From the IMG/VR virus record IMGVR_UViG_2565956614_000003: 64,000 nucleotides of DNA; one strand, written 5' to 3'. The DNA comes from a virus. Its lineage: Duplodnaviria > Heunggongvirae > Uroviricota > Caudoviricetes. Position 1 is the first letter of the stretch. Every line of letters begins with the position of its first letter. Positions 47,467 to 48,595 of this stretch are shown here, one piece after another. The notes beneath the pieces were generated by a model. It was not told the DNA's origin. It ran no database searches and worked only from the letters and a program-made list of their open reading frames with translations. A program made the translations under genes and the position numbers.

Positions 47467-47721
47467 TTGACTATATGCGATAGCGAGAAGTTGACTATAG
47501 GCGACATTCGTTGACGCTGGTGGATTTTTGCTGGCGTCAATATTCTCCAAGTCGCTATTGAGATGGCTTTTAGGGTCATTTCATCGCGTATAGTCAACGT
47601 TTCTCCCGACAATATCTTACATAGTCGATCTTTGGTGGAGTTAAATCGACTACAGTCAACTTTTGACTGTAGTCACATCGCGCATAGTCAACTATTCACA
47701 TTAACTTTCGCGCATAGTCAA
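47467..47721. repeat. incA-like iteron cluster
   Basis: At least seven TTGACTRTAGYCRC-type iterons in both orientations downstream of repA. Confidence 0.7.
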
Positions 47722-47756
47722 CATTTGCGCGGTTCTCATCAAGCAGTGGTATTGAT

Positions 47757-48566
47757 ATGCAAGAAGAGAAACAACACTACCTCTACGTTCTGGTGCCGGA
47801 GAATGGAGATACTTTTAAAATCGGCATTTCATGTGGTCCATTGGCACGGTTTAAAGGGCTACAAGTGAATCCCGATTTTGCGCTTTCACGGGTCTATCGT
47901 GGTACGCGTTTGGCAATAGTTAATCTTGAGCGGGCTTTACACGCAACCTTTTTCCCCTGGAATGCGCCGTGGGAGAAAAGCGCCGGTGGCGGGCATACTG
48001 AATGGTTTACACGAGAGTGTCTTGATAAGGTTTTGGCTCATATCGAATATCTAAATGATATGTGGGGAGGGATTCTCGAGCGGATTAAGTCGAATGATTT
48101 ACTTCAGCGTCCAGTAGATGCTGCTCGCTCTTTCGAAAAAGAACTGGATGTTACTTCTATCGTGACTTTCAAAGATGACGCAGGAATGAGGGATGTGGCT
48201 TATGTCTCCATATCTGGCTATGAACCTGACGCGATCCGCGCTCAATGTGAATTGCTGAAAGCGATGTTTACGCTTCGGACTAAATATCCCTGGGAGACAG
48301 GGCGGGTGTGCTTCCCTATGGAAGAGTTAACCGCCACCATTGATTCCCAGCTTTACCACGATAATCCAGAGAAGTTTTTTAGCCTTTTAGCCGGTAATGG
48401 GCTTAACTGTGTGTCCGGACTGGGGCGAAGTAGAATCCAACATGCCTCGCTCTTCGGTCCCTTCTTTTACGATCGAAACGGGTGCTTTGAGGCTGAACTT
48501 CCGGCGCTTACGCGTGCTATAGATACTATCGATTTCGAACGATTATTCGCAGCTCTTAACAAATAA
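47757..48566 (+). CDS. T5orf172 / GIY-YIG-like domain protein with unknown C-terminal domain
   Basis: 269 aa; N-terminus YLYVL...KIGIS...R...L...LERALH..F...EWF fits the T5orf172 pattern; own terminator. Confidence 0.65.
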   Translation: MQEEKQHYLYVLVPENGDTFKIGISCGPLARFKGLQVNPDFALSRVYRGTRLAIVNLERALHATFFPWNAPWEKSAGGGHTEWFTRECLDKVLAHIEYLNDMWGGILERIKSNDLLQRPVDAARSFEKELDVTSIVTFKDDAGMRDVAYVSISGYEPDAIRAQCELLKAMFTLRTKYPWETGRVCFPMEELTATIDSQLYHDNPEKFFSLLAGNGLNCVSGLGRSRIQHASLFGPFFYDRNGCFEAELPALTRAIDTIDFERLFAALNK

Positions 48567-48573
48567 CACTGAT

Positions 48574-48595
48574 GCCCCTGAACGGGGCTTTTTTG
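48574..48595 (+). terminator. intrinsic terminator
   Basis: GCCCCTGAACGGGGC followed by TTTTTT. Confidence 0.65.

Follow-up and report, generated by a model that had tools for sequence, protein, structure and literature searches.

The DNA analysed here, referred to throughout as the window, is a 64,000-nucleotide stretch of IMG/VR virus record IMGVR_UViG_2565956614_000003. The window is a P1-like phage-plasmid with a 'p0111' replicon of the RCS47/SJ46/JL22 type. P1-like phage-plasmids are common carriers of extended-spectrum beta-lactamase (ESBL) and mcr genes in Enterobacteriaceae, and IncY and p0111 replicons are found on one and the same backbone; a survey of 55 P1-like elements assigned 24 to p0111 and 31 to IncY (PMC9603915). 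Our subject is an open reading frame (ORF) of 810 bp (47757..48566, plus strand) that lies between the iterons behind the initiator gene repA and the par operon. It encodes 269 amino acids from the first start codon past an in-frame stop. The 2.6 kb around the ORF are 97.5-98.9% identical to the P1-like phage-plasmids RCS47, SJ46, JL22, phi456 and others, and canonical P1 aligns to this region only from the par promoter (Ppar) on. The annotation of RCS47 lists, in order, upfA, repA, 'GIY-YIG nuclease family protein', parA, parB, gene 23. The features of the locus in the window are the following.

46374..48632, no strand assigned: replicon cassette (iterons, repA, iterons, ORF, terminator) in place of the incC-repA-incA of P1; flanks 96.6% and 99.3% identical to P1
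46398..46498, plus strand: five direct iterons with ~21-bp spacing, oriR/incC-like, upstream of repA
46580..47464, plus strand: repA, p0111-type Rep_3 initiator of 294 amino acids, 42% identical to P1 RepA (Pfam Rep3_C/Rep3_N; phrog_775)
47465..47504, plus strand: two direct incA-like iterons, right behind the repA stop codon
47584..47726, minus strand: four inverted incA-like iterons, the last ending 30 bp before the ORF ATG
47757..48071, plus strand: ORF residues 1-105, T5orf172 (GIY-YIG-superfamily) nuclease domain with conserved Tyr10, Lys21, Arg31, Glu58, His62 and Glu82
48072..48566, plus strand: ORF residues 106-269 and stop codon, fast-evolving acidic domain (isoelectric point, pI, 5.1) with a predicted winged-helix fold like the WH1 domain of Rep initiators
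48574..48597, plus strand: intrinsic terminator of the ORF, GCCCC-TGAAC-GGGGC plus T-run (fold energy -11.9 kcal/mol, z = -2.3)
48633..49931, plus strand: P1-identical Ppar/operator region and parA (99.7% identical to P1 ParA)

Homologs of the ORF have been recorded under several names. One was listed as an unknown ORF, gp57 of JL22 (PMC9603915), one is probably among the '2 orfs inserted between repA and parA' of pSvP1 (PMC6906374), and one was named 'GIY-YIG nuclease' in a p0111-type P1-like plasmid (PMC9037040); RefSeq lists the gene too. Our literature search found no paper that gives the ORF a function or ties T5orf172 to phage-plasmids. In phi456 (GenBank OR339795.1, 39982-40788) the homologous gene is labelled 'terminase small subunit', a label supported by nothing found here.

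The N-terminal part of the ORF belongs to the T5orf172 family. Pfam T5orf172 (PF10544) matches residues 8-85 with E=1.2e-5 and 26.2 bits, above its gathering cut-off of 20 bits, and the Pfam matches to MUG113 and Tox-URI2 are sub-threshold. Thus, of the T5orf172/Mug113 pattern that a first-pass annotation, made from the sequence alone, had seen in the N-terminus, the T5orf172 part holds and the MUG113 part stays below threshold. In PHROGs, the full-length ORF falls into phrog_2876 (function unknown), and its N-terminal domain also matches phrog_681 'endonuclease' (E=1.6e-9). Structural models of the ORF gave SLX1 fold matches, consistent with a GIY-YIG-type alpha/beta fold; together with the profile match above threshold, this agrees with the GIY-YIG-like character that had been proposed for the protein. 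In an alignment of 20 sequences, Tyr10, Lys21, Gly23, Arg31, Ser44, Glu58 and Glu82 are invariant; among 143 relatives, the Arg, both Glu and the Gly are invariant and the Tyr is at least 90% conserved. Among these residues is the GIY-YIG catalytic Tyr/Arg/Glu set, which is kept among relatives down to ~20% identity. The Glu equivalent to Glu82 was replaced in the E180A mutant of the ICP1 nuclease Odn, which was used as a catalytically inactive control (PMC8263062).

The ORF is part of a replicon cassette. Identity to P1 takes in the DnaA-box/GATC part of oriR and ends at window position 46373, ahead of the first iteron; it returns at 48633, which lies 67 bp past the ORF stop codon and leaves 16 bp to the Ppar -35. 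The latter point is the junction between a divergent RepA replicon and a P1-type par system to which the first-pass annotation had drawn attention, and its description of an 810-bp gene with its own terminator between incA-like iterons and par is likewise accurate, with the hairpin and T-run at 48574-48597. As it had also stated, incA directly precedes the par promoter in P1: the distance from the last incA iteron to Ppar is ~190 bp and holds no gene. A search of this P1 spacer for a remnant of the ORF found none.

Within this cassette, the ORF and its repA are inherited together. In PLSDB, 401 records from Escherichia, Salmonella, Shigella and Klebsiella hosts encode the ORF, 400 of them at ≥90% identity and the remaining one at ≥80%. 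The window RepA allele is matched at ≥80% identity by 398 records, and its nearest relatives beyond these, which are RepFIB-like, are <50% identical. The ORF is thus linked about 1:1 with p0111 RepA, and it is missing solely from elements whose entire cassette belongs to another type, such as P1. One copy is found in a 272-kb conjugative IncHI1B plasmid (NZ_AP027640.1, L057), where it sits in an embedded P1 fragment with the order ppfA-mlp-upfA-repA-ORF-parAB-gene 23 that ends at an IS3-family transposase; this candidate for an occurrence outside P1-like DNA was rejected on account of that setting.

A profile search of 1.84 billion representative proteins returned only three other full-length relatives, P0004, P0009 and P0011, which are 44%, 28-31% and ~25% identical to the ORF, respectively; the remaining matches cover the N-terminal domain only. 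All three are encoded in P1-like contigs in the same slot, from the post-repA iterons to parA. Genes of the P0009 type were not found in PLSDB, and scans of genome and viral contigs for more family members gave near-identical copies only. Comparison of the repA-parA interval across P1-like phage-plasmids shows the gene in this slot with three RepA types: that of locus L002 is p0111-like (84% identical to window RepA), that of L050 is P1/IncY-like (83% to P1 RepA and 42% to window RepA), and L052 has a RepA of a third type, 41-47% identical to the rest. The ParA proteins of L002 and L050 are 99.7% identical, and the flanks of these two loci are 90% and 98.8% identical, the latter from ~63 bp past the ORF stop codon; they differ from the first iteron to that point. 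Because the flanks match and the block between them differs, we regard iterons-repA-iterons-ORF as an exchangeable unit, and the ORF marks the right edge of the cassette in two independent swaps. It therefore lies at the boundary of a recombination or co-conversion tract beside an essential gene, the position typical of homing endonucleases. The idea that the gene was wedged in as a foreign insertion has to be given up in view of its co-inheritance with RepA in ~400 plasmids, its diverged homologs in the same slot with three RepA types, and its membership in the exchangeable cassette.

The gene is dispensable. We examined 46 near-identical loci, 45 of which could be assessed, the gene in L048 being cut by a contig end. 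Intact copies make up 37/45 (82%), and the other 8 (18%) are inactivated by four independent events: S112* (TCG to TAG), common to five copies (L012, L013, L018, L021 and L024); W68* in one copy (L043); Q228* in the SJ46 copy (L041); and a ~1.8 kb insertion plus a 229-bp deletion in L046. Since nonsense and insertion alleles occur naturally, the ORF is not essential, and an essential replication role was rejected. Thus, the first-pass view of the gene as accessory stands, and the outcome which that annotation had itself named as contrary to its reading, a conserved core component with a replication role, is not borne out in the sense of an essential role. The S112* alleles leave a separate ORF for the C-terminal domain that starts at Met102 and is reported by gene callers as a 168-amino-acid protein with 229 database members.

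The ORF also evolves under looser constraint than its neighbors. Among intact alleles, the ratio of nonsynonymous to synonymous polymorphism (pN/pS) is 0.32 for the ORF, with similar values for both domains, compared with 0.021 for repA, 0.002 for parA and 0.055 for parB. Between the window and L002, identity is 44% for the ORF product, 84% for RepA and 89% for ParA, and from such alignments the C-terminal domain appears to diverge faster than the neighboring proteins. This is what one would expect of an accessory or selfish gene on which selection acts weakly and intermittently.

For the C-terminal ~165 amino acids, we found no match in Pfam or among PDB sequences, in line with the first-pass statement that this part carries no recognizable motif. 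At the level of predicted structure, that statement needs amending. Two AlphaFold2 models were built, one from a three-sequence alignment without Rep-fusion proteins (predicted local distance difference test, pLDDT, 60.6) and one from 12 sequences (pLDDT 76.7). In both models, the best extended fold matches of the domain (94-105 aligned residues) are WH1 domains of iteron-binding initiators, namely MSBI1.176 Rep (6h24; score 5.6-5.8), RepE (2z9o; 5.3-5.7), RctB (4.8-5.0) and pPS10 RepA (1hkq; 4.5-4.8), with pi (2nra; 3.9) in the first model only. Foldseek returned nothing significant (best E 0.11), and its top-ranked entry was a Rep WH1 domain of the same family, followed by SLX1 and many RepE54 entries. 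The putative WH1 assignment thus agrees across methods, with weak fold scores, and is invisible to sequence methods. When the domain was compared by hhalign with RepA or with the Rep part of the fusion proteins described below, the probability was <1%, a result of little power in that the alignments were shallow and a control comparison of RepA with the fusion Rep failed too. The domain does not look like a complete Rep_3 initiator: it gives no Rep3_N or Rep3_C profile match, has room for one winged-helix-like domain only, and is acidic (pI 5.1), compared with a pI of 9.3-9.5 for RepA. In Rep_3 proteins such as RepE, pPS10 RepA and pi, WH1 is the dimerization domain.

Relatives of the N-terminal domain connect it to replication initiators. 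A wider profile search recovered at least nine such relatives (30-37% identity) fused to Rep3_N plus Rep3_C, and Rep3_N is the sole recurrent second Pfam domain among the 143 relatives. Two metagenomic low-GC contigs, L053 (6617-9293) and L056 (5198-8257), carry tandem 32-bp iterons, a stand-alone Rep_3 gene and then a T5orf172-Rep3_N-Rep3_C fusion; L053 is a 58.9-kb contig with phage-like genes, and its stand-alone Rep shares 47% identity with the Rep portion of the adjoining fusion. No Rep-like gene other than a T5orf172-Rep_3 fusion is found nearby in L054 (8001-9707) and L059 (383-2125); a small ribbon-helix-helix gene comes before the fusion in L054, and the fusion itself may be the initiator of those elements. 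In addition, P0088, a 308-amino-acid member of the T5orf172 subfamily, is encoded convergently with an RPA-family replication initiator (L063, 1101-3334) on a ~11.4-kb contig that recurs in many samples. The T5orf172-Rep_3 fusion family (~430-590 amino acids) was not found in deposited phage and plasmid records, and it appears to be undescribed, our search of the literature having found no description.

The 14-nucleotide core of the iterons around repA has 14 matches with up to three mismatches, compared with 4.8 ± 2.5 expected by chance, and none of 100 shuffles reached 14; 12 of the 14 matches fall in 46400-47721. One iteron-like site lies inside the repA coding sequence (47184-47197), with one core mismatch and the orientation of the upstream iterons. 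Between the two iteron groups downstream of repA there is an inverted repeat, TTGACGCTGG...GCTGGCGTCAA, at 47510-47545, possibly a half-iteron or a site bound by some other protein; the 71%-identical L002 replicon retains the left arm, TTGACGCTGGTGGATTTT (L002 9916-9933). The ORF ATG is located 20-30 bp past the last iteron in all four replicon types, and no convincing sigma-70 promoter was found ahead of the ORF in any of them, the only candidates being weak iteron-embedded -35/-10 matches. Because the start codon lies so close to the final incA iteron and a strong promoter for the ORF was not detected, we infer that ORF expression is probably low and repressible by RepA, as at P1's PrepA.

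The ORF product is best read as a non-essential, predicted two-domain DNA endonuclease with an N-terminal T5orf172 domain and a C-terminal domain of Rep WH1-like fold. A part in replicon conflicts, be it as a weapon or as a selfish passenger, is more likely for it than one in phage defence or in replication. As to its specific role, we tentatively favor, as a possibility held with some reserve, a replicon-conflict nuclease in which the Rep-like domain would steer the GIY-YIG-type nuclease to the origin DNA of a rival, because Odn and the T5orf172 homing endonucleases are the closest functional precedents. On this reading, the ORF has long been carried along with the iteron-replicon cassette by a subset of P1-like phage-plasmids. 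The Rep-like domain would direct its nuclease to a rival or related replicon, at the origin or the iterons, either through DNA binding of its own or through pairing with RepA. Once cut, the rival replicon might be destroyed, or it might be mended by recombination, with the entire cassette being copied into it; the latter would explain why the right edge of the swaps falls just beyond the ORF.

Several observations speak against a replicon-conflict nuclease. With 11 iterons in the host plasmid itself, a nuclease directed at iterons would call for some kind of self-protection. Neither hhalign nor hidden Markov model (HMM) searches detected sequence similarity of the C-terminal domain to any Rep, and the domain is acidic in all four P1-like proteins (pI 5.1-5.2), which is unusual for a DNA-binding module. 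Rep3_N occurs in only 4 of 143 representative relatives; one relative is found in a phage rich in HNH homing endonucleases, and a distant one (P0013) in a chromosomal island that also carries WYL and Mrr-type genes. Finally, the ORF is never simply absent from a p0111 cassette, so that the presence/absence polymorphism of a classical homing endonuclease is not seen.

The acidity of the WH1-like domain also led us to consider a variant in which this domain heterodimerizes with the basic cognate RepA, so that iteron-bound RepA would serve as the targeting subunit. Transcription signals embedded in the iterons would allow a burst of expression when the iterons are unoccupied, for example just after entry into a new cell, and the nuclease would cut resident replicons whose iterons are of the same type or a related one, amounting to nuclease-based incompatibility or a replicon-replacement drive. 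We think this RepA-guided version quite unlikely. If true, it could help to explain the similar frequency of IncY and p0111 on one P1 backbone.

Pairing with RepA need not involve cutting. The ORF could be an accessory regulator of replication or copy number whose WH1-like domain pairs with RepA or binds iterons and thereby modulates initiation or handcuffing, the T5orf172 domain being vestigial or a nickase only, as in domesticated relatives of homing endonucleases. Such a role would suit a gene that co-varies with RepA type inside the specificity cassette and starts next to the last iteron; the acidic domain could pair with RepA (pI 9.3), and the T5orf172-Rep_3 fusions give a 'Rosetta stone' hint of a physical link. 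However, 18% of the copies are inactivated, among them the one in SJ46, reported to be a transferable P1-like phage (PMC5241659). Replication of P1 and other IncY plasmids proceeds in the absence of such a gene, its pN/pS is far looser than that of repA or parA, and the catalytic Tyr, Arg and Glu are kept to ~20% identity, arguing for a nuclease in use. We therefore judge a regulatory role unlikely, if somewhat less so than the RepA-guided nuclease. The conservation of these residues, in intact ORFs from four lineages that have diverged to 25-44% identity, is also at odds with the proposal that a homing endonuclease once entered an ancestral P1-like plasmid at the incA-parA spacer and that the gene is its decaying relic, now functionless and kept only by linkage to repA. 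Frequent pseudogenes, relaxed constraint, a promoter and ribosome-binding site that are weak or undetectable, and a P1 that lacks the gene are what such a relic would leave, but 82% of copies are intact and a pN/pS of 0.32 still indicates purifying selection; a relic seems to us about as improbable as guidance by RepA.

T5orf172/Mug113 nuclease domains occur in some defence proteins, and the first-pass annotation had accordingly linked the ORF to defence or anti-defence, as cargo on the maintenance region. The gene is accessory and fast-evolving, and the chromosomal-island setting of P0013 points the same way. On the other hand, no defence family in PADLOC-DB v2 matched the ORF at E up to 1, NCBIfam gave no match, and no partner genes accompany it. 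Full-length homologs were found only at the P1-like replicon slot, in a search of 1.8 billion proteins, and not in defence islands; the informative fusions and neighbors are replication initiators, and the other relevant relatives are homing-type nucleases. The link to defence is accordingly one that we do not retain, and we rank it as the least probable of the explanations considered.

Should the ORF prove to be a replicon-directed nuclease, it would represent a new protein-based mechanism of plasmid competition or replicon replacement. The principle of Odn, a nuclease combined with an initiator-like domain, would be extended from conflict between phage and satellite to plasmid replicons, and attention would be drawn to the uncharacterized T5orf172-Rep_3 fusion family. 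If it is instead a decaying selfish element, the ORF is still a useful marker of cassette exchange.

Among known replicons, the P1 IncY replicon shares with the window upfA, the DnaA box and GATC part of oriR, Ppar, parAB, a Rep_3 initiator and iterons on both sides of repA. It differs in having nine incA iterons, a 190-bp gene-free spacer before Ppar, a RepA that is only 42% identical, and no remnant of the ORF. The metagenomic fusions (P0154, P0048, P0160, P0163 and others) share the N-terminal domain subfamily with the ORF (34-37% identity, hhalign probability 98%) as well as the order iterons, Rep_3 gene, T5orf172 gene. They have Pfam-detectable basic WH1 and WH2 domains, some with a full Rep C-terminal extension, whereas the P1-like proteins would have one diverged acidic WH1-like domain; unlike the ORF, some of the fusions appear to be the sole Rep on their contig.

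T5orf172 homing endonucleases adjoin essential genes and sit at the boundaries of genetic exchange (PMC10448857). The ORF resembles free-standing T5orf172/GIY-YIG homing endonucleases, such as those of the ICP1 homing endonuclease genes (HEGs) and the T4 Seg proteins, in being small, in its predicted arrangement of an N-terminal catalytic and a C-terminal targeting domain as in I-TevI, and in lying beside an essential gene at a recombination-tract edge and being prone to decay; ICP1 gp5 is likewise dispensable and decay-prone (PMC10448857). It is unlike them in showing no presence/absence polymorphism within one cassette type, and its 'cargo' would be a complete replicon-specificity module. 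Nor is its C-terminal domain among the known HEG DNA-binding modules (CapR-like, DUF723 and DUF4397 zinc fingers, Bro-N/KilA-N).

The closest parallel is with ICP1 Odn (Gp88), which combines a T5orf172 nuclease with a RepA_N domain, mimics the initiator of a satellite and cuts the satellite's iteron origin (PMC8263062). Odn and related RepA_N-T5orf172 nucleases share with the ORF the T5orf172 domain with catalytic Arg and Glu (PMC8263062, PMC10448857). In Odn a second domain, akin to the origin-binding portion of an initiator, is joined to the nuclease; the C-terminal domain of the ORF may be a counterpart, by a weak fold match. Both are accessory, with related genes often frameshifted, and both are tied to the modular evolution of replicons made of RepA plus iterons. 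A survey of ICP1 HEGs described RepA_N partners and did not mention Rep_3 (PMC10448857). In Odn the RepA_N domain is N-terminal and similar in sequence to the RepA of its target, whereas the second domain of the ORF is C-terminal, acidic and Rep_3-WH1-like by predicted fold only. Odn is a lytic-phage gene aimed at a satellite, whereas the ORF resides inside the phage-plasmid's own replicon cassette.
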